Source: Spirochaetia bacterium (GTDB lineage Bacteria; Spirochaetota; Spirochaetia; UBA9216). From it: a stretch of DNA of 64,000 nt. The DNA is taken from positions 992,001-1,056,000 of the forward strand of contig CAXXYH010000003.1 of NCBI GenBank assembly GCA_963677925.2, read 5' to 3'. Below are positions 41,497 through 55,051 of the stretch, piece after piece. The notes beneath the pieces were generated by a model that made no database searches, had not been told where the DNA came from, and was given only the letters and a program-made list of their open reading frames with translations. How positions within the stretch are numbered: position 1 is the stretch's first letter; each line of letters begins with the position of its first letter. A program made the position numbers and the translations under genes.

Positions 41497-43554
41497 ATGA
41501 AAACCAGTGTAATCGGGAAACTTTTCAGCGGAATGAAGATCTCTACCAAGATCATCCTCAGCAATATATTCTTTCTTATTCCGATGGGAATTATGCTTTT
41601 TATCAGTCTTACCGGAATCAATTACGACATAAGATTCTCAAGCCTTGAGCTTTACGGAAATGAGTATCAGCAGCCGCTTGAGTCGCTGCTTCAGAATATT
41701 CAGGACCACAGAATATACTCATCCGACAGCGGTTTACAAAACAGGCTCTCAGATCTTGAAAGAAAAATAGACTCCGGATTCAATAAACTGGAAGAGGTTC
41801 AGGAAAAACGCGGCGAAGATCTTCAGTTTACCTCCGATGGACTTAGAATACGCAACAGGGAACAGCTTGTCCCTGCCCTTCTGAAAACCAGATGGAATGA
41901 TATAAAGCGATCAGGAAGCAGTGCAGATTATGAATCGCTTGTTTCAGATATACGAGAAATGATTACACATTCAGGTGATACTTCAAACCTTATCCTTGAC
42001 CCGGACCTCGACAGCTACTACCTGATGGATTTAACTCTTCTTGTTCTTCCTCAGACACAGGACAGACTTGGAGAAATACTTGCTTACGGATATGAGCTTC
42101 TGAAAGATATGGAGGCCGGCGGCATAAAAGCACTCCCTGCTTCTGACAAACTTAAATTTTACGTTTACGCAAGAATGCTTGAGGAATCCGACTACAGCAG
42201 GATACTCGGAAGCACAAATACGGCGCTTAACGAAGATCAGAACTTTTACGGTACCTATGAACCCATGCAGTCAACAATACCTTCAGCATTTGAAGCCTAC
42301 AAGGTTCCGACTCTTGAGTTTATAGGCATACTCTATGATCTCGGTACATCTGATGAGATCAATTATTCCTCATCAGAGTTTCTCGATTCCGGAGAGACAG
42401 CCCGGAATCAGAGCTTTGCCTACTGGGATGATACTGTACGGATTCTGAACGATCTTCTTGAAATCAGAATTGACAGTTACCGCAGCACTTTTATTAAATA
42501 TCTGATTGCAGCAATTGCAACCATACTCTGCGCATTCCTGATCTTCCTTGCAATCAGAAAAAACATTCTTTCTTCAATAAGTTCTCTTCAGGCGGGTTTC
42601 AGGCAGGCATCTGAAAACGACCTGACAACAAGAATAGATGTTTACGGAAGGGACGAGATAGCGCTTTGCTCTAATGACTTTAATGATCTTGTAACAAAAT
42701 TTTCAGATCTGATGAATAAACTCCAGAATATGACGGCTATACTTACCGAGTCGGTTCAGAACCTGAACGTCACTTCGCAGGAGGTTTTTGCTACATCAAA
42801 TGAACAGGCTGCCGCTGTCAAGGAAATAGTAACCACAATGGAAGATTCCGACAGCATGTCAAAGTCGGTAGCCACAAGTATTGCGGAGATTTCTGCACTT
42901 GCCTCGGGAACCAACGAATCGGTGAGAAGCGGCTTTGAACTTATCACGACCATCCTTGAGAAAATGAATGAGATTCAGCTCTCCAACGGCCAGACAATAA
43001 AAGGAATAAAATTCCTTTCGGAGAAAATTGAGAATATCTGGGAAATAGTTAACCTTATCAACGGAATCGCCGACCAGACAAAGATAATTGCCTTTAATGC
43101 CGAACTTGAAGCCTCATCTGCCGGAGAAGCCGGAAAGAGTTTTCAGCTTGTTGCTACCGAAATCAGAAGGCTTGCGGACAGTACGGTTTCATCGACTTCA
43201 GAGATAAAAAACAGGATAAACGAAATCCAGCGCTCCTCCGATGCACTTATTGTTTCTTCAGAAGACGGTACAAGAAAGATAGCAGAAGGCAATGATTTGA
43301 CAGGCCGTATGAACAGCGTATTTGAAGGGATACTTTCATCAACCGAAAAGACCTCTACTTCTACAGACTCCATCTCTATCTCAATTAACCAGCAGGTCTC
43401 ATCTTTCGAGCAGATACTGCTTACACTCAGGCAGATTTCAGAGGGAATAGACAACTTTGTTGTAGCAACAAAGGCAAGTGCCACATCTGCCGAAACTCTT
43501 AAGGGCATGGCACAGGAACTTGACAGCAGAATAGAAATGTATAATGTCAATTAA
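41497..43554 (+). CDS. Methyl-accepting chemotaxis protein (same signalling subtype as the Che-operon MCP)
   Basis: TM, helical sensor (SNLILDPDLDSYYLMD), TM-HAMP; tip IADQTKIIAFNAELEASSAGEAGKSFQLVATEIRRLAD. Confidence 0.92.
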   Translation: MKTSVIGKLFSGMKISTKIILSNIFFLIPMGIMLFISLTGINYDIRFSSLELYGNEYQQPLESLLQNIQDHRIYSSDSGLQNRLSDLERKIDSGFNKLEEVQEKRGEDLQFTSDGLRIRNREQLVPALLKTRWNDIKRSGSSADYESLVSDIREMITHSGDTSNLILDPDLDSYYLMDLTLLVLPQTQDRLGEILAYGYELLKDMEAGGIKALPASDKLKFYVYARMLEESDYSRILGSTNTALNEDQNFYGTYEPMQSTIPSAFEAYKVPTLEFIGILYDLGTSDEINYSSSEFLDSGETARNQSFAYWDDTVRILNDLLEIRIDSYRSTFIKYLIAAIATILCAFLIFLAIRKNILSSISSLQAGFRQASENDLTTRIDVYGRDEIALCSNDFNDLVTKFSDLMNKLQNMTAILTESVQNLNVTSQEVFATSNEQAAAVKEIVTTMEDSDSMSKSVATSIAEISALASGTNESVRSGFELITTILEKMNEIQLSNGQTIKGIKFLSEKIENIWEIVNLINGIADQTKIIAFNAELEASSAGEAGKSFQLVATEIRRLADSTVSSTSEIKNRINEIQRSSDALIVSSEDGTRKIAEGNDLTGRMNSVFEGILSSTEKTSTSTDSISISINQQVSSFEQILLTLRQISEGIDNFVVATKASATSAETLKGMAQELDSRIEMYNVN

Positions 43555-43602: not shown

Positions 43603-45363
43603 TTATTTAAAATCAAGAGTTGCCGCTCCGTCCCAGTATTCGGGCGGAGATGCAATGTATTCTATGCATCGTTCCAGAAACTGTGACGTCGGAAAATCAT
43701 CCGGTAAGAGTTTCAATGCATTTTCCAGATAATCTTTTGCAGTATACCAGTTCCCTATCAGGTACATTTTTATTCCGTTTTCATAGAACCTGAACCACTC
43801 CTCTGAAAAGTTCTCAGGTTTGATCTCAAGAGAAAAGATTCTGGTCGGTTCAGTTTTACCCTTCACTCTGGCAATATCAACAAGTCTTGCAGTAAAATCA
43901 AGATGCAGACTGTTTTTTAAATTTTCTGAAACAAGTATGGGTGTACGGTAATGCTTTGTGAGACTTTCAAGTCTTGCGGCAAGATTAATTGTATCTCCGA
44001 TGGCGGTGAAATCGAATTTATCCGAACAGCCGATATTTCCGATGATAGCCGGCCCCTCGTTCAGGCCGACACCAATAGTAAACCCGCCCTCAGGAAGCTT
44101 CAGTCCGGAGAGATCGATCCGCTCATATTCACGAATCATTTCCATTGCCGCCTGGGCAGCTCTGTCGGCATTATCAATGTAGCTTACTGCAGCACCGAAA
44201 ATTGCGTAGATTGCATCACCAATGAATTTATCTACAGAACCGCCGTATTTTTTAATTATTGCCACCATGTTTGTGAAATGCTGATTCAGGAAATTAACTA
44301 CTGCATCCGGGGGATTATCAGCCATGATTTCATCAAAATGACGTATGTGGGAAAACATTGCTACAATCGTTCTCTTCTCACCGGTCATCAGATCCTTTTC
44401 TGTATCTTTAATCAGAAGATCATTGATTATCTCTTCGGGCAGGAATCTTGAAAATGCCGAGTAGATGGTTTTCGTCTCATTCTGCTTTCTTTCAAATTCC
44501 CGGGCAAGATAGATCATCTTCTTAATCTGATTTGAGATATTATCTGCTTCGAGGCCCTCAACCGGAACCTGCTCTCTCCGGATACAGCCCGCAACATAAT
44601 AACCGCTTAACCCAAGTTCCTCCGAATCAAGATCTATAAACAGTGTAACAAGTTTCTCAAGTTCAGGATCTCCAATACATCCGGCTTTAACTCCGGATCT
44701 GCATTTCTTCTTAAGTTCAATTTTTTGCTCATCATCAATTTCTTCATGAAACTTCAAAATCTCATATTCACTTTCCGACGAACCAACTGAGATATACGAA
44801 AACTCGGTATTGAGAATTAGAGCGATTCTTTCGAGGATATTTTCTATTACGAGTTCCATTCTTTCCGCGGTAACATCAAGACATCCAAGTTCGCTTTCGA
44901 AATACGCATCATACAGCCTGTCAAGGATCAGGCTTCTGGATGATGAGGCTGTAAAACCGGGTTTAAGCAGATCCTGCGGTTTTGGATGATTATCAGGATT
45001 CAAAAAAAATTCCGATTTACGGTGTTCATACATCAGCCTGCTTATCTTCATTCGGTTTTCCTGAGACATATTCTCGCTTCTTGGAACGACAAGGTCTACA
45101 GGTAAAATGGAAGATCGGTAATGCTCACCTATAAAGACCAAGGGTATCTGATTAATCAATTGAAGACTTTTAATTGAAAAAATAATCTCTTCGAGTTCTG
45201 TACTGAAACTGTCTCCCAGAAAAACAACATTCGGAGGAGAATTGTACATTTCATCAAGAAGTCTGTCCTTGGTACGGACTATTTCTATATCATACTCATC
45301 AAAATCAAGAAGTATAATCTTTGAAAGCAGCTCCGAGGCCTCTGCATAAAGTATCTCAGCCAT
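43603..45363 (-). CDS. Class III adenylate cyclase subunit B (pseudo-receiver, cyclase, TPR-like tail); lacks first metal Asp
   Basis: Start moved to ATG 45363 (GGGGGT RBS, 8-nt overlap with upstream gene); FSHIRHF, DKFIGDAI, FTAIGDTINLAARLE, RVKGK, PPEYWDG tail. Confidence 0.88.
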   Translation of the reverse strand: MAEILYAEASELLSKIILLDFDEYDIEIVRTKDRLLDEMYNSPPNVVFLGDSFSTELEEIIFSIKSLQLINQIPLVFIGEHYRSSILPVDLVVPRSENMSQENRMKISRLMYEHRKSEFFLNPDNHPKPQDLLKPGFTASSSRSLILDRLYDAYFESELGCLDVTAERMELVIENILERIALILNTEFSYISVGSSESEYEILKFHEEIDDEQKIELKKKCRSGVKAGCIGDPELEKLVTLFIDLDSEELGLSGYYVAGCIRREQVPVEGLEADNISNQIKKMIYLAREFERKQNETKTIYSAFSRFLPEEIINDLLIKDTEKDLMTGEKRTIVAMFSHIRHFDEIMADNPPDAVVNFLNQHFTNMVAIIKKYGGSVDKFIGDAIYAIFGAAVSYIDNADRAAQAAMEMIREYERIDLSGLKLPEGGFTIGVGLNEGPAIIGNIGCSDKFDFTAIGDTINLAARLESLTKHYRTPILVSENLKNSLHLDFTARLVDIARVKGKTEPTRIFSLEIKPENFSEEWFRFYENGIKMYLIGNWYTAKDYLENALKLLPDDFPTSQFLERCIEYIASPPEYWDGAATLDFK

Positions 45364-46951
45364 ATACACCCCCGTAGGCATCTTTTCCGGGTGTATACAG
45401 ACCGTCAGGCCATTCATCATCGGTATTCCGGTTCAAAACAGTTTCCATGGATACTTCAGTACGTACATCTTCGAATACTGCTTTTGATACAAGAACCGGT
45501 TTCTGATACTGCTTTGTTATTCCCTCAAGCTCCTCGGCAATACCAACGACATCACCTATCACCGTAAAAGCGCTTTTATCCGGAGAACCAATATTTCCAA
45601 TAATTGCTTCTCCATGATGCAGACCGATCCCTATTCTGTAATGATTGCCGGACAGAACAAGACCGGAGCAGTCAACCTTCTCAATATTGTCTATCATTCC
45701 GATTGCAGCCTTTACCGCATTCTGATTGACCTGGCCGGAATCCCCGTTCAAACCGAAAACTGCAACTATGGCATCACCGATAAATTTATCGATGGTTCCT
45801 CCGTATTTTTTTATGATACCTACCATCATATCAAAATGCCGGTTCAGAAAATCAACAACCTGCTGAGCATTATTTTCTTCGGTTATTGTTGTAAATGATC
45901 TTATATCGGAAAACAGGATTGTCACATTCTTTTTCTGCACACTGTTTTTCTCTCTGTTTATTTCCTGGAAAATAAGGTCGGGAATTATCTCTGGAGGAAC
46001 AAATTTCGAAAAGATGTTGAAGATCTTACCCTGCCTGAGAATGTTCTGGCTTGTTTTAAGAGAAAGATAGAGGGGCGGTTCAATTCTGTTTACAAGTTCA
46101 CTGATAAGCTCCGGGTATATTCCTTCAAAATAATTATTACTCAGATGGCCGAAGTGTATTGTCCCCACAGCATTCCCATCCGGGCTTTTAAGTGGCAGAT
46201 AAAAATAAGAACTTAATTTTCTTGTCCCGATTTTCATCCTGCTGAATTCTTCCGAATCTTCGGTGAAGAATACTTCATGAGGATTTTCCATATCCAGCCC
46301 CTTGAAGTGTGCAAAAAAATCGTTCAGACAGAAATTAAGAAAATCCCTGTAATCTTCCCGGAATATCCCCTTGGAAGGCATGACATAGGATTCAACACTC
46401 TGGTTGTTGTTAATCAGTACAACGGATAAATGAATTTTTATTATCTGGTGAAGATACTGAAGAAGGTATTCAACTGTCTTTGATAAAACTTCAGTTTTCC
46501 CTGATACCGATGCAATATCACGCTTTACTGTCTGCTTTTGAAGATTATCAAGCAGGCGTCTGACGCTCTCCCCCTGTGAGAGACTCATTCTGATTGGAAA
46601 GTTCAAACCTGCTGCCCGGTTCCCGGTTTCAGAGTCGGGTATTTCAGACAATGTGTATACGGTTCCGGTTCCTCCGCAGGCGATAAACAGATTGCGCAGC
46701 CGGATATCATCCTTAGCCAGATAGCCGTAAACCGGAAGAGCCTCCGAATCAAGATGTTCCCTGAGAGCACAGATAATATCAAAACTCTCGGGCTGCAGCA
46801 GGTCAAGCAGTAGACAGTCAGGGACATCACGGATGTCTTTGAAACTGATGCTGTTTTTCCAGCTGATGAACCTCAGTTCAGGATTTTCAGGAGAAAGAAT
46901 TAGTTTTGAGAGTGATGCTGAAACGGCAATATCTTTCAATGATCTATCCAA
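45356..46951 (-). CDS. Class III adenylate cyclase subunit A (receiver-like, GAF-like, cyclase); lacks transition-state Asn/Arg
   Basis: TTG start overlapping cheA stop; PDCLLLD receiver-like; FSDIRSFT, DKFIGDAI, FTVIGDVVGIAEELE. Confidence 0.88.
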   Translation of the reverse strand: MDRSLKDIAVSASLSKLILSPENPELRFISWKNSISFKDIRDVPDCLLLDLLQPESFDIICALREHLDSEALPVYGYLAKDDIRLRNLFIACGGTGTVYTLSEIPDSETGNRAAGLNFPIRMSLSQGESVRRLLDNLQKQTVKRDIASVSGKTEVLSKTVEYLLQYLHQIIKIHLSVVLINNNQSVESYVMPSKGIFREDYRDFLNFCLNDFFAHFKGLDMENPHEVFFTEDSEEFSRMKIGTRKLSSYFYLPLKSPDGNAVGTIHFGHLSNNYFEGIYPELISELVNRIEPPLYLSLKTSQNILRQGKIFNIFSKFVPPEIIPDLIFQEINREKNSVQKKNVTILFSDIRSFTTITEENNAQQVVDFLNRHFDMMVGIIKKYGGTIDKFIGDAIVAVFGLNGDSGQVNQNAVKAAIGMIDNIEKVDCSGLVLSGNHYRIGIGLHHGEAIIGNIGSPDKSAFTVIGDVVGIAEELEGITKQYQKPVLVSKAVFEDVRTEVSMETVLNRNTDDEWPDGLYTPGKDAYGGVYG

Positions 46952-49124
46952 TCAGCTCCCGCACCCGTTCGAGCAGGCTGCCCCGGTCAAAATCATTTTT
47001 GTTTATGATTGCATTCCCGCCTGCGGCTTTGACTTTATCTTCGAGTTCGCTTCGCTCATTGGAGCTTATTACGATAACAGGGGTTTTTTTGTATTTCTCC
47101 TGCCTTCTGACATTCTCTATCAGCGTAATACCATCCATTCTGGGCATCTGAACATCGGTGATGATAAGATGAAAGTACTGCTCCTTCATTTTATCAAGAG
47201 CGTCAATACCGTCTACAGCAAGCGAGACATTGAAGTTCTCAAGCTCAAGAATTGATTTTTCTATTTCACGCGTTGATAAAGAGTCATCAACAACAAGAAT
47301 CTGCTTATACTGCTTGTCTTCCGGAGAATACCGTTCCTTGAACTCTATATTTCTTATGCCCTTGAACCTTGATATAAGTTCGGGAACAAACAGAATATTT
47401 ATAATCTCAAAGTTCTCATCAAAAACTATCCCTTGTATAACTTTCAGTTTCGACAGCCGTCCCGGGAGAGGTTTATATATTAACGATGAGAACTGAATTA
47501 CAGAATCAACTGTAATACCGATTATATCTCCGAGAGACTCGACAACAACTACAGAGAGTTTCTCGGATACGGATGTATTCTCTTTTCCAAGAAGGGCTGC
47601 AAGGGGATATACAGGAATTATCATCTCTCGAAGGCGTATGACATTCTTGTTGAGCACTGAAACTATTTCATCTCTTTTGATGATTAAAATTTCCTTCACG
47701 AAAGCAGTTGGAATAAGGAATTTTTTACCCTGAGCCTTAACAAAAAATCCGTCGACAGTAGCAAGGGAAAGAGGCAGTGACATTTCAAACAATGTCCCCT
47801 CACCGGTTTTACTGTCTATGATAATCTTTCCTTTAATTTTCTCAATATTTGTTTTTACAATATCAAGTCCTACCCCTCTGCCTGAAAGGTTGGTTATCTT
47901 CTTTGTGGTGGTAAACCCGGACTGAAAAAGAAAGGAGGAAAGACTTCCGTTATCCATCTTTCGAATCTCGTCCTCCATCTCAGGATTAAGCTCTATTGCC
48001 TTAGCCCGTATAGAATCATAATTTATACCTCGGCCGTCATCCCTTATTCTTATATTTATCCGTCCGCTCTCGGATGTACACTGAATAAGGATGCTTCCCT
48101 GGGAATCCTTGCCGGCTTCAGCCCTTTCCTGCGGACTTTCAATACCGTGATCAACCGCGTTACGGATAAGATGTATGATTGGATCATTAATGTTTTCAAG
48201 GATCGTTTTATCTATCAGCAAATTCGAACCAGTAATCTGAAAATCGATCTCCTTCTCAAGCAGCAGTGAAGTTTCTTCAACCATCTTTTTCAGCGGATTA
48301 AGAACCAGATTAAGAGGCAGCATCTGAAGTCCAAGAATTTCCTCCTGCAGCTCAAAACTGATATGCTCAAGCTGTGCCATTTCATCCGAATAGGTCTTCC
48401 TGATCTTCTGGGTCATCTTGGTCAGTTCCCCGAGTGAATCGGAAACAGGCTCAAGCCCGGGCTGATTGGCTGCAAAGTTTTTTACCTTCGCAAGAACACC
48501 CCGAAGACCTTCTTCAAGTTCGCTTAGAGTCTCATTTTCTCTCTTGAACTGGAACTGCTGTATAATCAGGCTGTTAAGCTGTTTTACTATTTCATCAATT
48601 TTTGTAATCTTAACCCTTATCGATTCATAATTCGACAGAGCTGAAGAGTCTTTCACTGAATCCGGAACAGGGCTGTCGTCAACACCATCCTTTCTGTTCT
48701 GGTTATGATCTCCTTCAAGCTCCTCCACTGTGAAAGCAAGGCCGGACTCCGCTTTTCTGAAGACATTCTGAAGGTTCGTCATTTCAATAGTGTCGGTACC
48801 AAGCGATTTAACCCGGTCCAGACCTTCCTCAAGATACCCGATGGAACTGTAGATCAGCTGAAGGAGATTCCGTGTAAGCGGATACCGCTTTTCCTTGACA
48901 CCCTTGAAAATGTTTTCAAGTTCATGGTTAATGGCTTCAAGATTCCTGAAATCCATCATCCGGGAAGAACCTTTGAGGGTGTGAAGCAGCCTGAGAAGTT
49001 CGGACAATTTCTCGTTGTTGTCCGGTTCCTTTCTCAGGGCAATGATGATATCACCCATGGTGACAATATTCTCTCTTGATTCCACTAAGAAGTTATCAAT
49101 AAATGATTTCTTGTCAATTGCCAT
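46944..49124 (-). CDS. cheA: Hybrid CheA histidine kinase with C-terminal receiver (WspE-like)
   Basis: HPt LHTLKGSS, HLIRNAVDHGIE, DDGRG, SGRGVGLD, CheW domain, receiver VVDDS...ITDVQMPRMDG. Confidence 0.95.
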   Translation of the reverse strand: MAIDKKSFIDNFLVESRENIVTMGDIIIALRKEPDNNEKLSELLRLLHTLKGSSRMMDFRNLEAINHELENIFKGVKEKRYPLTRNLLQLIYSSIGYLEEGLDRVKSLGTDTIEMTNLQNVFRKAESGLAFTVEELEGDHNQNRKDGVDDSPVPDSVKDSSALSNYESIRVKITKIDEIVKQLNSLIIQQFQFKRENETLSELEEGLRGVLAKVKNFAANQPGLEPVSDSLGELTKMTQKIRKTYSDEMAQLEHISFELQEEILGLQMLPLNLVLNPLKKMVEETSLLLEKEIDFQITGSNLLIDKTILENINDPIIHLIRNAVDHGIESPQERAEAGKDSQGSILIQCTSESGRINIRIRDDGRGINYDSIRAKAIELNPEMEDEIRKMDNGSLSSFLFQSGFTTTKKITNLSGRGVGLDIVKTNIEKIKGKIIIDSKTGEGTLFEMSLPLSLATVDGFFVKAQGKKFLIPTAFVKEILIIKRDEIVSVLNKNVIRLREMIIPVYPLAALLGKENTSVSEKLSVVVVESLGDIIGITVDSVIQFSSLIYKPLPGRLSKLKVIQGIVFDENFEIINILFVPELISRFKGIRNIEFKERYSPEDKQYKQILVVDDSLSTREIEKSILELENFNVSLAVDGIDALDKMKEQYFHLIITDVQMPRMDGITLIENVRRQEKYKKTPVIVISSNERSELEDKVKAAGGNAIINKNDFDRGSLLERVRELIG

Positions 49125-50520
49125 ACCTGACTCCCTCTTTCAGATTATCTAATCTAGCCCTGCATATCTCCCTGAAATACTTGGCGTTAAACCCTTCAAG
49201 CAGGAACTGGTAATCTATTCTTTTATCACTTATATAACGATCGATATCCCTTGTCAGAATTCCAAGATGTATCTCTTCGCCCGCGGATGAGGTTCCGCAG
49301 CTGAAAGTAATGTAATATCTTGCCGGCCAGAATGCCGGATTGGCATCAAGCACTTTCTGAAAAGCAGAAAGTGCTGCAGATTTGTCCCCCTTCTGCAGAG
49401 GGATAAACCCGCCGAAAAAGCTGTAAAGACTCTGAGGATGTTCATTGGGTTTCAGCTGTGCAAACAGAACTTCGGCTTTTTTAAGGTTGTTTCTGCCAAG
49501 CTCGGAAAGAATATCAGCAAATTTTTCAGCCGATCTCAAGGCCGGGGAATCATCATCTGTAAAAATAGGGTTGTTAAGAATATTTGTGATAAACAGACAA
49601 ACCTGCTTTTCATCAGGAGGAGCCTGAAGCTCGGCTTTATGGATAACTTTTTTTACCGGCTCAGCAGATATGATATGACTGGGCACCGGCTGAATATTTG
49701 CCGGCTCCATATGAAGAGGATCTTTCTTCCTTAAAAAATAACAGTAGTCACTGGAAATAACTTCAAGCTGGGGATGTGATATGTGTGCAACCTCAGAAGC
49801 CGACAGAATCAGAATTCCTCTGTTTTTTAGCTTCTCGGTAATTTTGTTGATAACCTTCTGTTTATTTTCAAGATTCATATAGATCAGTGTATTCCTGAGA
49901 AAAACACAGTCCATCATGGGAAGATCGGCAAGGCTGTCATTATAAAGATTGATTTCCCGGATATCTATTTTATTCATGACATCTTCTTTAATAGATAGTT
50001 CTTCAGAGCCTTCAGATCGGGATGAAACCTCATCAAGCAGTTCATGAAAAAGCTTCCCGTCGGTTCGGAGTGCTCCCTTACGGAATATTCCTTTCCGGAA
50101 TTTATTCAAAATATGAGCGTTAATATCACTCGCATAAACCTTAAACGGCAGCCTGAGCTTTCCGTTCATCAGTGCATATAATGAAACAGGTTCTTCACCT
50201 GATGAACAGCTTGCACTCCAAATATTAATTGAGCCGCCTTCATTGTTCTTTTCAGGTATAAATACATCCCTGAGATATTTGAATTGTTTTTCTTCTCTGA
50301 AAAAATAGGTTTCATTTATAGTAACATGATCAAGTAAGCGTTCGTATTCTTCCTTTACTGTCTTAAGGATATTGAGATATACCTGTGCAGATCCGTTGAA
50401 ATCCTTTAACCGGTCATCAAGGTAGCCGTTGAAACTCATCATGTTTACAGGCTTCAGGTCAATCCCTGTGTGATATTCAATAAACCTTATTATTTCTGCG
50501 TATGAACTCATAGGCCGCAC
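49114..50520 (-). CDS. cheR: CheR methyltransferase with C-terminal TPR-like region (WspC-like)
   Basis: TINETYFFRE, IWSASCSSGEEP, ASDIN, FLRNTLIYM; helical C-terminal extension. Confidence 0.92.
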   Translation of the reverse strand: MRPMSSYAEIIRFIEYHTGIDLKPVNMMSFNGYLDDRLKDFNGSAQVYLNILKTVKEEYERLLDHVTINETYFFREEKQFKYLRDVFIPEKNNEGGSINIWSASCSSGEEPVSLYALMNGKLRLPFKVYASDINAHILNKFRKGIFRKGALRTDGKLFHELLDEVSSRSEGSEELSIKEDVMNKIDIREINLYNDSLADLPMMDCVFLRNTLIYMNLENKQKVINKITEKLKNRGILILSASEVAHISHPQLEVISSDYCYFLRKKDPLHMEPANIQPVPSHIISAEPVKKVIHKAELQAPPDEKQVCLFITNILNNPIFTDDDSPALRSAEKFADILSELGRNNLKKAEVLFAQLKPNEHPQSLYSFFGGFIPLQKGDKSAALSAFQKVLDANPAFWPARYYITFSCGTSSAGEEIHLGILTRDIDRYISDKRIDYQFLLEGFNAKYFREICRARLDNLKEGVRYGN

Positions 50521-51563
50521 ATTTCTTTTAATTCGGATGATATTTTCTGCAGCGGCAGAATTTTTGTTGCTGCATTAAGTTCCGCGGCGGCCTTGGGCAT
50601 TCCGTATATCAGCGATGTTTCACGGTCCTGAACAAGGGTTCGGCCTCCGGACTGTAAAATCTTAAGACAGCCGTCAGCTCCGTCCCGGCCCATTCCCGTA
50701 AGCAGAACACCTATTACGCCGCTGCCGTGACTGGCTGCCGCCGAGAAAAACATTTTGTCAACCGAAGGCTTCTGGTTCTGCAGTTTAGGAGAATCATCCC
50801 AGTATGCCTTCTGTTTCGTACAGCAGAGATGATAGGTTGACGGAGCCACAAGTACAGTACCAGGCTGAATTGTGTCATTTTCCTCTGAGATTCTGACGGT
50901 AAGCTCGGTGCCCTCATCCAGCCAGCGTGCGTAGCCCTCATCATAGCCCTCTTCTATATGCTGGCTCAGCAGTATGCCGACAGGGAAATTCCCCGGCAGT
51001 CCTTTTAAGACCTCACGTACAGCCGACGGTCCTCCGGTAGAGGCCCCTATTACAACGAGGGTGCAGGCCTTCCCTCCTGATAAACCTGGAGACGGTTTTA
51101 CGGACAAAGATGAAAAATCTCCTGCGGGGGGGGTAAGTTCCGTCTTCTCAATAATCATTTTTTTATTAAGTCTGAAACTTCCGAACCGTCCGGTATTTTC
51201 AAGAACTGTTTTGAAGGAAGCAGCAAACTCAGGGTCATTCATTTTACTTACTGCCGGCTTCGGAATAACTTCAAGTGCGCCCTTATTAAGGGCATTGAAT
51301 CCGACCTCGGAAATATCTTCACTTGTAAGAATCACTATCGGCAGAGGAGTGTTCTGCATAATTATCTCTGTGGCTGTAATGCCGTCCATAAGCGGCATAT
51401 TGACATCCATCAGAAGAAGGTCGGGCTTGAGTGATTTAACAAGCTCAATGGCCTGCTGACCGTTACTGCCTTCTCCTACTACTTCAAAACCGCCTAGTGA
51501 CTCAAGCAGCTGCTTTATAATTGAGCGTACCAGGTATGAATCATCAACCAATACTATTTTCAT
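50508..51563 (-). CDS. cheB: CheB methylesterase / response regulator
   Basis: Start moved to ATG 51563; receiver VDDS..LMDVNMP..KP; GASTGGP, QH, LLTGMGRDG, YGMP. Confidence 0.95.
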   Translation of the reverse strand: MKIVLVDDSYLVRSIIKQLLESLGGFEVVGEGSNGQQAIELVKSLKPDLLLMDVNMPLMDGITATEIIMQNTPLPIVILTSEDISEVGFNALNKGALEVIPKPAVSKMNDPEFAASFKTVLENTGRFGSFRLNKKMIIEKTELTPPAGDFSSLSVKPSPGLSGGKACTLVVIGASTGGPSAVREVLKGLPGNFPVGILLSQHIEEGYDEGYARWLDEGTELTVRISEENDTIQPGTVLVAPSTYHLCCTKQKAYWDDSPKLQNQKPSVDKMFFSAAASHGSGVIGVLLTGMGRDGADGCLKILQSGGRTLVQDRETSLIYGMPKAAAELNAATKILPLQKISSELKEMCGL

Positions 51564-52098
51564 TGTTTTTTCCTGTAAGAATATTCCTGATATTTGTTTC
51601 AATATCTATGAAGAACTGGATACGTGATTCATTGCTGAAACGGCAGCCAAGCAGTCCGTTTCGAAGAAGAAGACCATCAAGTCCGGGGGGATTAACATAA
51701 AATTCGTTCAAAGACAGTGTCTTTATCTCGACCTGGCTTGAAACAATCAGACCGATACTGTCTATATGGACATCCTCATGCAGATCGGTAATCTTCATTA
51801 CCCGCTGAATTGTTTCATTGTTATAATCCGCTATATTCACTATGAGGCAGAGTTTGAGCCGTGAAGGATTTTTACATTTATAATTGTCCATCAGGAACTG
51901 ATCAAAATCACAGAGGACAAGATTTCTGCTGTTATAATCAGTGTATTTATCAAAATAGTCAGGACAGCCTGAATGAACTTCATAAAGTTCATTCAGGGAG
52001 GAGCTGCCTGTAAACTGGCTGCGATGGATTAGAAAATCAATTTCACGGTACTGCAGAACCAGAAAATCAGCACTGCTTCCATCGGAATTAATAGGCAC
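51544..52098 (-). CDS. Divergent CheW-like coupling protein
   Basis: Lies between cheW and cheB; weak CheW pattern (FLVL, IGLIVSS, IQFFIDIE). Confidence 0.55.
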   Translation of the reverse strand: MPINSDGSSADFLVLQYREIDFLIHRSQFTGSSSLNELYEVHSGCPDYFDKYTDYNSRNLVLCDFDQFLMDNYKCKNPSRLKLCLIVNIADYNNETIQRVMKITDLHEDVHIDSIGLIVSSQVEIKTLSLNEFYVNPPGLDGLLLRNGLLGCRFSNESRIQFFIDIETNIRNILTGKNNENSIG

Positions 52099-52627
52099 TG
52101 ATATCGCCCTCCATCTTCTTTATCAGTGTGTTAAGATCAAATACAAAGATTTCTTCTGTATCAGTCGGGTTTATAGTGCCTATAAAATAGTCCTCATCCG
52201 GAATGGTGGATGTTATCCTGTGCAGTTCACTTTCCGGCAGATTTACAATCTCGACTACATCCGAAATAAGAATGGCAAGCTGATCATCCGCCCTGTTTAA
52301 AATCAGAAAGGTTGAAGAATCAAGCTTCTCTCCCTCCAGTATCACAGTCATGTCAATAACAGTATAGGGTTCACCATGCCGGTTAATAAAACCGCTGATA
52401 TACGGAGGTGTAAAGGGGACATAGAATACCGGCGTATTTCCGATTATCTCCTTTACTTCATCTGCAAACAATGCAAATTTTTTATCCTTGATTCCAATAA
52501 TCATATACTTGTTGTATTTCTGCGAGATTATAGCGGCTTTACCGTCTTTTTCGCTTCTAATCCGGCTTATCCTGTTCAGGATTTCCCTGGTCTCATTCGT
52601 CCGGCTGCTTTCTTCATTCTGCATCAT
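52088..52627 (-). CDS. cheW: CheW coupling protein
   Basis: FAL..DEVKEI, VPFTPPYISGFINRHGEPYTVID, AILISDV. Confidence 0.9.
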   Translation of the reverse strand: MMQNEESSRTNETREILNRISRIRSEKDGKAAIISQKYNKYMIIGIKDKKFALFADEVKEIIGNTPVFYVPFTPPYISGFINRHGEPYTVIDMTVILEGEKLDSSTFLILNRADDQLAILISDVVEIVNLPESELHRITSTIPDEDYFIGTINPTDTEEIFVFDLNTLIKKMEGDISAY

Positions 52628-52646
52628 TCACCTCCAGTCAGGGTTC

Positions 52647-53054
52647 TCAATAAAAATCTTCACTGAAAAGTCCGCGCCGTGCCTTCTTTTCACCATCACT
52701 GAACCCAATCTTGGCAATAAGAACCGCTACAGCCTTTTCAAGCTCGAGTGTTTTTCCAGTAAATTCCATTCCATAGTAATGATGTCCGGTCTTTCTATCC
52801 TGTTTATTCCATCTTGTTTCTACTGTTATCGGAGGCAGAGGCACACTTATAAATCCTTCAAAGGGTATCTTTATCTCTATCGTTCCCTTAAAGCCGGAAT
52901 CGATAGGCTGCTCAGCCAGAAGAAGGACTCCATTGGAACTGATGTCTGCCAGCTTACCGATCATATTCCCGGTTTCGGTATCCTCTATATCAAGATAGTA
53001 AACAAGATTTCTTCTTTTTATTTCGCGCACTGTATCACCTTTATCTGCATGCAA
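52647..53054 (-). CDS. Single-domain PilZ protein (c-di-GMP receptor)
   Basis: RxxxR (REIKR) and DxSxxG (DISSNG); TRW...YGMEF. Confidence 0.85.
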   Translation of the reverse strand: MHADKGDTVREIKRRNLVYYLDIEDTETGNMIGKLADISSNGVLLLAEQPIDSGFKGTIEIKIPFEGFISVPLPPITVETRWNKQDRKTGHHYYGMEFTGKTLELEKAVAVLIAKIGFSDGEKKARRGLFSEDFY

Positions 53055-53056
53055 TT

Positions 53057-55051
53057 TTATTCGATGTCACTTACATTATACTTATCAACCAGTTCCTTAA
53101 GTCCGTCGGCCATGGCTTTCAGATTTTCGGTTGATGCTGATGTTGACCTGGTGGAAACAACAAAATTATCTATACCGCCTGATATCTGCCTTAATGTCAG
53201 AAGAATCTGCTCAAACGCAGAAACCTGCTGATTGATAGATACGTTTATCTGCTGTGCCGATTCCGCTGATATTTCCGCAGAGCTTAAAACATCCTCGAAT
53301 ATTTTTCGGAGAGCACCTGAAAGCTCACCGCCTTCCCTGATATGTTCAGTTCCCTCTTCAGAAGCAATAATGAGGTTATCTGAAGAATGCTGAATTTCGT
53401 TAATCTTTCCCTTTATTTCACTTGTGGAAGACATCGTAATATCAGCAAGACGTCTGATTTCTGTTGCAACTATCTGAAAATTCTTTCCTGCTTCACCTGC
53501 GGCAGAAGCCTCCAGTTCCGCATTGAATGCAATAATTTTAGTCTGATCGGCAATCCCGTTAATTATATTTACAATCTCCCAGATGCTGTCTATCTTTTCG
53601 CTTAGTGCTTTTATTCCGTCGATAGTCTCCGAGTTTGATTTTTTAATTTCATCCATCTTTTCCAGGGTGCCCTGAACTGTTGAAAAGCCTGTCTGCACGA
53701 CCTCTCTTGTATTATCAGAAATTCTGGTCACCTCTTCGATCCTGTTTGCTATATTCTTTGACAGCTGATCAGAATCCTCCATGGTCGTAACTATTTCTTT
53801 TACTGCTGCAGCCTGCTCATTTGATGTTGCAGTAATCTGCTGGGATGATACCGAGAGATTCTGAACCGATTCAAAAAGCTCTGCAGAGGTAGATTTTATC
53901 CTTCTGAGCATATCCTCAACTGTATCAATCAAAGCGTTAAAATGAATTGATACTGTTCCTATTTCATCATGGCTTTTCTGCTCTACCCGTCCGGTCAAAT
54001 CGCCGGCGGCAATATTCTCAGTAAGTATTTTAATCTGTATCAGAGGCTTCAGGATACGTTTGAGAATAAGGGCAATAAGGTAATTGGCAAAAATAAAGGC
54101 GACAAAAAGAATAATTACACTGATAATTTTTATTTTATTCAGAAGACCGAACATATCGCTTGTATATGCCTTGGTAACAATGATTAGATCCAGGTCGGGA
54201 TAGGCTCTGAAAATTGCGATAGAATCTGAATCAATTTTATCACCAAGCATTCTGTAGGTTATCGAACCGTTCTGCTTCTTGATGATATCCCTTATAAAAT
54301 AGCTTCCATCTTCAGCCTGGTTATCATAAAGGCTTTCACCCTTAAGTGTTGGATGAATAAGAAGTTTGCCCTCATTATTCATGATATACGGATATCCGTT
54401 TTCACCTATTTTTATGCTCAGAATCCTTTTTTCAAGCTCGCCCAGATCAACCAGTTTATGGAATTCCGATTTATAAGATGAGGCCCAAATTATAAGATCC
54501 CAGGGTTTAAAATATGCCATACCGCCCGCTTTTGAGCGTGGTTTATCTTCATTCTTGTTCTGCCACTCATATTCCAGATACCCTTCCTTCATTGAAGTAG
54601 CTCTTTTCATAAAATCATAACCGCTTGCATCCGCCCCTTCCGAAAGAGGATGTATTACAAGAACACCCTTTCCGTCCACTCCGGCAAGATACCCGGTTTC
54701 ACCGATCTTTCCGATATCAGGATCAAGGATGATATTTTTTACATTCTGCCATGCCCGGGCTTCTGTCTGCCGTCCGGCTTTAAATTGATCATATTCATGT
54801 TCCACCAGCCGTTTTACCATTTCAGCTGTGCTGATAAGATAATTCTGAACGCTGGCATCCACATAGCTGTCGGTAAGCTGGTAAATCAATTCCGTTGTAT
54901 TTGAAAGCTCGTTCCGGTACTGCTTATCAAGACCGGATGTAAGATTTACAAAAATTCCAACCCCAAGCCCTGCCAGAACTATAACGAAAAGAACTCCGAA
55001 CACAGCCTGGATTTTTACACTGACACTTGAAAGTAATCTCCTAATATCCAT
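53057..55051 (-). CDS. Methyl-accepting chemotaxis protein with tandem Cache sensor; first gene of the Che operon
   Basis: TM-Cache-Cache-TM-HAMP; tip IADQTKIIAFNAELEASAAGEAGKNFQIVATEIRRLAD. Confidence 0.93.
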   Translation of the reverse strand: MDIRRLLSSVSVKIQAVFGVLFVIVLAGLGVGIFVNLTSGLDKQYRNELSNTTELIYQLTDSYVDASVQNYLISTAEMVKRLVEHEYDQFKAGRQTEARAWQNVKNIILDPDIGKIGETGYLAGVDGKGVLVIHPLSEGADASGYDFMKRATSMKEGYLEYEWQNKNEDKPRSKAGGMAYFKPWDLIIWASSYKSEFHKLVDLGELEKRILSIKIGENGYPYIMNNEGKLLIHPTLKGESLYDNQAEDGSYFIRDIIKKQNGSITYRMLGDKIDSDSIAIFRAYPDLDLIIVTKAYTSDMFGLLNKIKIISVIILFVAFIFANYLIALILKRILKPLIQIKILTENIAAGDLTGRVEQKSHDEIGTVSIHFNALIDTVEDMLRRIKSTSAELFESVQNLSVSSQQITATSNEQAAAVKEIVTTMEDSDQLSKNIANRIEEVTRISDNTREVVQTGFSTVQGTLEKMDEIKKSNSETIDGIKALSEKIDSIWEIVNIINGIADQTKIIAFNAELEASAAGEAGKNFQIVATEIRRLADITMSSTSEIKGKINEIQHSSDNLIIASEEGTEHIREGGELSGALRKIFEDVLSSAEISAESAQQINVSINQQVSAFEQILLTLRQISGGIDNFVVSTRSTSASTENLKAMADGLKELVDKYNVSDIE

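Follow-up and report, generated by a model that had tools for sequence, protein, structure and literature searches.

Two overlapping genes, here termed A and B, lie on the minus strand of a 64,000-nucleotide stretch of the genome of a Spirochaetia bacterium (GenBank assembly GCA_963677925.2, contig CAXXYH010000003.1, positions 992,001 to 1,056,000; hereafter the window). Both encode class III cyclases in which catalytic residues have been replaced in a reciprocal manner, and together they probably form an obligate heterodimeric adenylate cyclase, the cyclic AMP (cAMP)-making output of a pathway built of a methyl-accepting chemotaxis protein (MCP) and CheA. Neither chain holds all six catalytic residues, and the half-sites are complementary: the two metal-binding aspartates, Asp1 and Asp2, are intact in A, and the lysine, threonine, asparagine and arginine, as well as the VKGK motif, are intact in B.

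Complementary half-sites in overlapping genes

Catalytic positions were placed by HMMER alignment to solved class III cyclases (bPAC, OaPAC and others) and about 220 relatives, and the codons were checked. The residue set of A is D349, K389, D393, T463, G470 and E474 (DKDTGE), that of B is H339, K379, D383, T453, N460 and R464 (HKDTNR), and canonical relatives carry DKDTNR. The G-I-A-E-E stretch of A aligns under the V-N-x-A-x-R-L-E helix of the solved cyclases (codons GGT, 45542–45544, for G470 and GAG, 45530–45532, for E474), and the F-S-H-I-R stretch of B aligns under their F-S-D-I. A first-pass annotation of the window had described A as keeping both metal aspartates with Gly and Glu in place of Asn and Arg, and B as carrying His for Asp1, at 44347–44349, while retaining Lys, Thr, Asn and Arg; the alignment and the codons confirm both patterns, the codon at that position being the CAC of H339. 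The overlap of 8 nucleotides that it had noted between the genes also holds, given a B start at ATG 45363. This start is backed by the alignment of the B family, whose members open with M-x-D-I-L-Y-x-E-x-S, making the longer alternative (ATG 45420) unnecessary. The A start is TTG 46951, which overlaps the CheA stop by 8 nucleotides. The overlap between A and B, ATGGCTGA, suggests translational coupling.

Compared with the Pfam family Guanylate_cyc (PF00211), as the annotation had advised, A scores 75.5 bits and B 77.7 bits, each above the curated cut-off of 21.9. The cyclase regions of the two proteins are 43% identical, and the best PDB matches of both are all adenylate cyclases (bPAC, OaPAC, CyaB and CyaC; E 1e-18 to 1e-24). 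K379 and T453 of B, invariant in the alignment of the B family, are the Lys and Thr at the base-recognizing positions of the complete site. A Lys–Thr substrate pair is the mark of class IIIb adenylate cyclases. The VKGK lysine presumably contacts the triphosphate, as in mammalian C2, where one chain supplies it together with Asn and Arg.

Reciprocal losses in relatives

Relatives came from a search of a large protein collection, which listed 120 proteins for the A query and 102 further proteins for the B query; related genomes are non-independent observations, and the genome sample is a subset. The 120 comprise 85 canonical DKDTNR proteins and, besides the window copy, 34 of A-type, and the 102 comprise 63 canonical proteins, 2 with DKDSNR and, besides the window's own, 36 of B-type; canonical sets account for 85/122 rows of the A alignment and 63/104 rows of the B alignment. 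The source names are those of Spirochaetia, including Spirochaeta isovalerica, Oceanispirochaeta and several metagenome-assembled genomes.

Both aspartates and the threonine are kept in the A-type relatives and the arginine is lost in 34/34, with Glu in its place in most. The lysine is kept in 33/34, and the asparagine is replaced by Gly, Ser, Ala, Glu or Thr in 33/34 and retained in one. In all 36 B-type relatives, His stands at Asp1 and the K, D, T, N and R positions are intact. The first-pass annotation had staked its reading on homologous pairs conserving the same reciprocal losses, and with 34/34 A-type proteins lacking the Arg and 36/36 B-type proteins carrying the His, the expectation is borne out. 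Because every orthologue in each group shows the same kind of loss as its counterpart in the window, the pattern is neither chance nor sequencing error.

The constraint extends beyond the catalytic positions. The VKGK motif and the TPR-like tail are kept in B-type (33 rows) and canonical (38 rows) proteins and are missing from A-type proteins (35 rows). Retention of the canonical consensus in the β1–α1 segment, which carries Asp1 and the phosphate loop, is 0.90 in A versus 0.59 in B, and in the β5–α4 segment, with the Thr-Asn-Arg helix, it is 0.65 in A versus 0.88 in B; each paralogue therefore holds under constraint the half-site that its partner has relaxed. The replacing residues, His (35/35) and Glu (30/35), are themselves conserved, which points to selection on the second pocket and not to mere decay.

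The pair as a genomic unit

A is followed directly by B in 15/15 other loci with a readable neighbourhood, and CheA stands upstream of A in 11/11 of those loci whose fetched DNA extends that far. These arrangements were met in several searches. Three GTDB loci with an A-type open reading frame (ORF) have a B-type ORF immediately next to it (L034–L036), and five genomes from a class-wide search have the A–B arrangement (L118–L122). Scanning metagenome contigs with a motif specific to B-type proteins gave 11 loci with A-type directly upstream in 8, of which one duplicates L036 and 7 are new; of the other 3, two are truncated by the start of the contig and one is without a cyclase ORF. A scan of genome contigs with unspecific patterns from the A alignment recovered mostly canonical cyclases, with the pair in 3 of the 80 loci listed. 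Many A-type and B-type proteins have equal longest-contig values (10093, 137205, 11683, 59100), a hint at shared contigs that direct reading of the loci confirmed.

In a survey of 401 Spirochaetia genomes, with three candidates scored per genome, A orthologues matching over most of the query were found in 7, and full-length B in 6 of these 7. Partial B copies occur in two genomes: G008, whose pair is divided between two contig ends (CheA and A at the first, B at the second), and the fragmentary G384 (74% complete), in which A was not found.

A search of longer proteins found no fused A–B form, giving one unrelated match of 1027 residues; such a blank is weak evidence against a fusion. In one relative (L118, G155:C19, 10798–14124), A and B lie in one frame with a single TGA between them, the open frame amounting to 1109 residues; the arrangement is the nearest to a fusion, though it probably represents two adjacent genes.

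A single canonical gene in the position of the pair

A and B are the last genes of a chemotaxis-like operon. Its order in the window, MCP-CheW-X-CheB-CheR-CheA-A-B, is identical in 8/8 other complete A–B loci; the genes from MCP to CheR span 49114–55051 on the minus strand. In 9/9 related operons, including that of the same-genus genome G001, the position after CheA is taken by a single canonical gene of about 620 residues with the domain order REC-GAF-cyclase-TPR, which has all six catalytic residues in 7/7 of the copies checked among the nine loci. Members of this canonical family have a REC domain detected by Pfam (E ~1e-24) and weak GAF and TPR matches. The set of MCP, CheW, CheA, CheB, CheR and an output gene occurs together, in one and the same order, in 8/8 A–B loci and 9/9 canonical loci. 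No canonical copy was found in the window's genome, where all candidates were scored, and no A orthologue among the three candidates scored in G001. To judge from the genes present, a genome appears to fill this role either with the A–B pair or with the single canonical gene.

The cyclase domains were placed on a maximum-likelihood tree (118 rows, 191 columns, three trait columns removed, quick search). The A-type proteins form one clade (35 rows, Shimodaira–Hasegawa-like approximate likelihood-ratio test (SH-aLRT) 94), as do the B-type proteins (35 rows, SH-aLRT 94), both nested inside the Che-linked canonical family. The sister group of B is a canonical subgroup with G001 among its members (95), and the A and B clades agree in their sub-topologies. 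In the simplest history, the terminal cyclase gene would have duplicated once, the copies would have undergone reciprocal loss, and the pair would then have been inherited together.

The window CheA scores 1062 bits against its counterpart in an operon of another family (L118) and 781 bits against that of the congener G001 (L123), a contrast suggesting exchange or sorting of the operon in its entirety.

Model of the A:B complex and proposed mechanism

The catalytic regions of the two proteins (A295–531 and B285–520) were modelled as a complex with ATP and 2 Mg in three runs, alongside three controls. The A:B complex reached interaction prediction scores from aligned errors (ipSAE) of 0.78, 0.78 and 0.77, versus 0.00 for all controls, and in the predicted structure the runs agree in at least 91% of contacts, the partner has a predicted local distance difference test score (pLDDT) of at least 81, and the contacts match the familiar head-to-tail arrangement. 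The mark applied to such complexes was calibrated without a riding ligand or user-supplied alignments, and is reached by 58/80 solved complexes and 2/110 mismatched pairs. On these models, A and B would associate physically as a heterodimer.

The catalytic domains of A and B would pair head-to-tail, as in all class III cyclases. The complete ATP site would be formed by D349, D393 and the phosphate loop of A together with Lys379, Thr453, Asn460, Arg464 and the VKGK lysine of B, and the degenerate site would comprise His339 and Asp383 of B with Lys389, Thr463, Gly470 and Glu473/474 of A. Conservation, the loss of VKGK from A, the segment retention values and the operon slot all support the interpretation, put forward in the first-pass annotation, of complementary half-sites giving one predicted complete site in trans. 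The pair would have arisen by duplication of a single REC-GAF-cyclase-TPR response-regulator cyclase, the last gene of the chemotaxis-like operon, followed by reciprocal loss, and the 8-nucleotide overlap would favour equimolar synthesis of the two chains. Since the pair appears to descend from the terminal cyclase of this operon, the heterodimer would be the cAMP-producing output of the MCP/CheA pathway. The inactivity of either homodimer, the cAMP product and control by CheA are what we infer from the observed residues, their conservation, gene adjacency, synteny, phylogeny and domain folds; everything functional said here draws on sequence, conservation, context and models.

In the window's genome, 10 matches are to class III cyclase domains and 16 to cyclic nucleotide (cNMP)-binding domains; receivers of cyclic nucleotides thus exist in it. 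For a spirochete with a 5-Mb genome, such a cyclic-nucleotide signalling repertoire is large.

The second pocket, judged by its conserved residues, would place the invariant His of B and the conserved Glu-Glu of A opposite the retained Lys and Thr (A) and Asp (B). We raise tentatively, at somewhat less than even chances, that it is a rebuilt and selected site, acting as an allosteric sensor of a ligand or metal and/or as a charge-swap lock that enforces the heterodimer; in the latter case the change from Asp to His on one chain may answer that from Arg to Glu on the other. If a second site was indeed rebuilt, the operon family, with its living intermediates, records the passage from a homodimer to an asymmetric, regulated heterodimer, independent of eukaryotic C1/C2 and soluble guanylyl cyclase (sGC).

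Receiver-like N-terminal domains

AlphaFold (AF2) models were obtained for the N-terminal 292–300 residues from shallow alignments of 8–9 sequences (pLDDT 79.9 for B and 77.6 for A). Both models consist of a receiver-like domain followed by a GAF-like domain, and the top match is a solved REC-GAF sensor kinase. The B receiver is well formed, with a template modelling (TM) score, normalized to the target, of ~0.74 against receivers, E 5.5e-8 against the REC-GAF kinase 6ob8 and an hhalign probability of 95% against the canonical REC. The A receiver is eroded: helices α1 and α2 are missing from the model, the TM score against receivers is ~0.5 and the hhalign probability is 33%. As modelled, the (βα)5 receiver fold is present in B and weaker in A.

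One high-GC B-type protein from a metagenome contig (L140) opens with the receiver-like L-L-V-L-D-D-S, which holds an acidic pair lacking in window B; receiver erosion therefore varies within the B clade.

Alternative explanations

Simpler accounts of the pair were discarded. A sequencing error at His339 is ruled out by the presence of His in 35/35 B-type rows and by a separately assembled public contig (run X1; possibly from the source sample, so not independent), which covers 43603–46951 with 0 differences. Pseudogene formation or decay is ruled out since the A and B ORFs are intact and orthologues 40–72% identical to them carry the same substitutions, and the chance juxtaposition of unrelated cyclases is ruled out by synteny and the tree.

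Several observations weigh against an obligate heterodimer under CheA control. Class III homodimers have already been solved, so the scores of the A:B model show an intact interface and not a preference over A:A or B:B, and they may reflect only likeness to those homodimers. Histidine can itself serve as a ligand of divalent metals, so some activity could persist in a B homodimer, for instance with Mn or a different metal; that the His is strictly conserved and has not drifted marks a function without indicating which. The two key branches of the tree, at SH-aLRT 94, are below the starred level and come from a quick search, and the genome survey scored three candidates per genome. The receivers add to these points. 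Pfam detected no REC domain in the N-terminus of A or B, even at E up to 10. D50 of A is invariant at the end of β3, and A is without a conserved acidic residue after β1; B has an invariant E8 after β1, Gly50 in the column of the usual phospho-acceptor Asp with D51 one residue later, and an Arg near the Lys position. The REC-like domains of both subunits are thus divergent, and control of the enzyme by CheA is tentative on that account.

B could be an enzyme by itself, a homodimer with His339 as a metal ligand and two working sites, with A as a non-catalytic modulator that acts, for example, by forming less active mixed dimers. Its five of six catalytic residues and VKGK agree with this, as does a His that is invariant (35/35) and not random, as expected of a still-working residue. 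The phosphate-loop segment around that His is nevertheless relaxed (retention in B falling well below that in A), which argues that the Asp-side half-site of B is out of catalytic constraint; A keeps exactly the Asp-side elements relaxed in B, which is hard to explain if A was never catalytic; and B is never without A in the 15 other readable neighbourhoods. We consider a self-sufficient B, the main rival, unlikely. Still less likely, in our judgement, is a pseudo-enzyme module in which neither homodimers nor heterodimers make a cyclic nucleotide and the pair binds nucleotide or some other ligand and signals by protein contacts in the Che-like pathway. Canonical residues are indeed lost from both subunits, both REC domains are divergent, and degenerate cyclase-type domains serve as sensors in other second-messenger families. 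The losses, however, are exactly complementary: each pair examined still has, in trans, the full six residues and VKGK. General decay would not leave exactly one site complete across about 35 diverged pairs, and the pair stands where relatives have a fully canonical cyclase in their operon. There is, lastly, a very slender chance that the heterodimer is catalytic with a product other than cAMP or another nucleoside triphosphate as substrate, class III domains being a group that includes guanylate, cytidylate and uridylate cyclases. Against it stand the best PDB matches, adenylate cyclases throughout, and the use by the trans-complete site of Lys379 and Thr453 of B, the same Lys/Thr pair as in canonical relatives and in adenylate cyclases of class IIIb.

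Coordinates and neighbouring genes

The operon genes, the features of A and B and the gene facing them are listed in Table 1. The MCP downstream of B is convergent in 5/8 related loci, on the same strand in 1/8 and without a detected counterpart in 2/8. In the window its large N-terminal region (residues 1–340) is without a Pfam match. The ORF designated X184 gave nothing significant with Pfam and, in a BLASTP comparison with CheW, a weak local match only (E 0.045); its position is conserved in 8/8 A–B operons and 8/9 canonical operons. CheR is long (468 residues), with the Pfam CheR match at residues 69–251 and about 215 C-terminal residues without assignment. This extension recalls the reported CheR-TPR fusions of non-motility chemosensory pathways (PMC3447774).

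Table 1 Features of the A–B locus, in window coordinates
Feature	Position	Strand	Basis and remarks
Gene A, 531 aa	45356–46951	minus	ORF; REC-like (degenerate) + GAF-like + class III cyclase domain; without TPR tail; 'C1-like': both metal Asp kept, Asn, Arg and VKGK lost
Gene B, 586 aa	43603–45363	minus	ORF; REC-like + GAF-like + class III cyclase domain + TPR-like tail; 'C2-like': Lys, Thr, Asn, Arg and VKGK kept, His at metal Asp1
A stop / B start overlap, 8 nt, ATGGCTGA	45356–45363	minus	Sequence read
A cyclase domain	45473–45937	minus	Pfam; aa 339–493, profile positions 5–152 of 183; profile end unmatched
B cyclase domain	43846–44373	minus	Pfam; aa 331–506 (586-aa numbering), profile positions 7–176 of 183
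A D349 (GAT), metal Asp1	45905–45907	minus	Kept in 35/35 A-type rows
A D393 (GAT), metal Asp2	45773–45775	minus	Alignment and codon check
A G470...E474 (G-I-A-E-E), at canonical N-x-x-x-R site	45530–45544	minus	Glu in 30/35 A-type rows
B H339 (CAC), replaces metal Asp1	44347–44349	minus	His in 35/35 B-type rows
B T453, N460, R464 (FTAIGDTINLAAR), substrate Thr, transition-state Asn and Arg	43972–44007	minus	Alignment and codon check
B K501-G502-K503 (VKGK motif)	43855–43863	minus	Kept in B-type and canonical rows, missing from A-type rows
CheA (Hpt, HATPase, CheW-like, C-terminal REC)	46944–49124	minus	Stop overlaps A start
CheR	49114–50520	minus	Pfam
CheB	50508–51602	minus	Pfam
X184, conserved 184-aa ORF between CheW and CheB	51544–52098	minus	
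CheW	52088–52627	minus	Pfam
MCP with Cache sensor	53057–55051	minus	Pfam
Convergent MCP (HAMP + MCP signalling domain)	41497–43554	plus	Just downstream of B

Comparison with known systems

In the mammalian membrane adenylate cyclases (C1/C2) and in the α/β heterodimer of sGC, one domain gives the metal Asp pair and the other the Lys, Asp/Thr, Asn, Arg and C-terminal Lys. By its residues, the A/B pair resembles these enzymes in having one putative active and one degenerate site at the same interface. Unlike them, A and B are separate overlapping bacterial genes, neither a fused chain nor unlinked eukaryotic genes, and they are of the Lys/Thr type, have REC-like and GAF-like N-termini and lie in a Che-like operon. 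The degenerate site also differs: A keeps its Lys and Thr there and contributes the Glu, and B contributes the invariant His. This site may be analogous to the forskolin site.

The canonical REC-GAF-cyclase-TPR cyclase shares with the pair its operon position after CheA and its domain order, and in its cyclase domain and tail it is 46–55% identical to B; it differs in being a single gene with all six residues, presumably forming a homodimer, and in having a REC domain that Pfam detects. Rv1625c/Cya, Spirulina CyaC, Pseudomonas aeruginosa CyaB and bPAC/OaPAC have the same fold and catalytic motifs as A and B, but they are homodimers by nature, and their two sites are equivalent. Complementary defects engineered into Rv1625c mutants reportedly allow activity to be reconstituted (Guo et al. 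2001), and the window pair would be a natural, conserved version of that complementation.

According to a 2022 review, bacterial class III cyclases homodimerize and a fused dimeric bacterial form is not known (PMC9552081). Searches of openly available full-text literature yielded no natural two-gene bacterial class III heterodimer and no Che operon ending in such a pair. A 2004 survey has 'heterodimeriz' once in its body and may thus hold an earlier passing suggestion of such pairing in mycobacterial cyclases (PMC2447327).

The asymmetric design of one catalytic and one regulatory site has so far been treated as a eukaryotic innovation after gene duplication, and in this operon family bacteria would have made the same transition from homodimer to heterodimer naturally. 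What appears to be new is that bacteria reached the C1/C2 principle on their own, with two separate genes, and that sister lineages retain the ancestral homodimeric form. Because close relatives, a species of the same genus among them, still have the ancestral single-gene form in this slot, the steps of the transition can be compared and reconstructed, and A and B would offer a compact, soluble two-protein system for asking what purpose the second site serves in asymmetric cyclases.

Through the pair, cAMP synthesis in free-living spirochetes would also be tied to a complete receptor pathway of the chemotaxis type. The Chp pathway of Pseudomonas influences cAMP through the separately encoded CyaB, and the output of Wsp is a REC-GGDEF protein that makes cyclic di-GMP. 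Like such alternative chemosensory pathways, the A–B operon combines a full set of MCP, CheW, CheA, CheB and CheR with a second-messenger cyclase in place of the flagellar CheY; unlike Chp and Wsp, its output is a class III cyclase pair encoded inside the operon itself.

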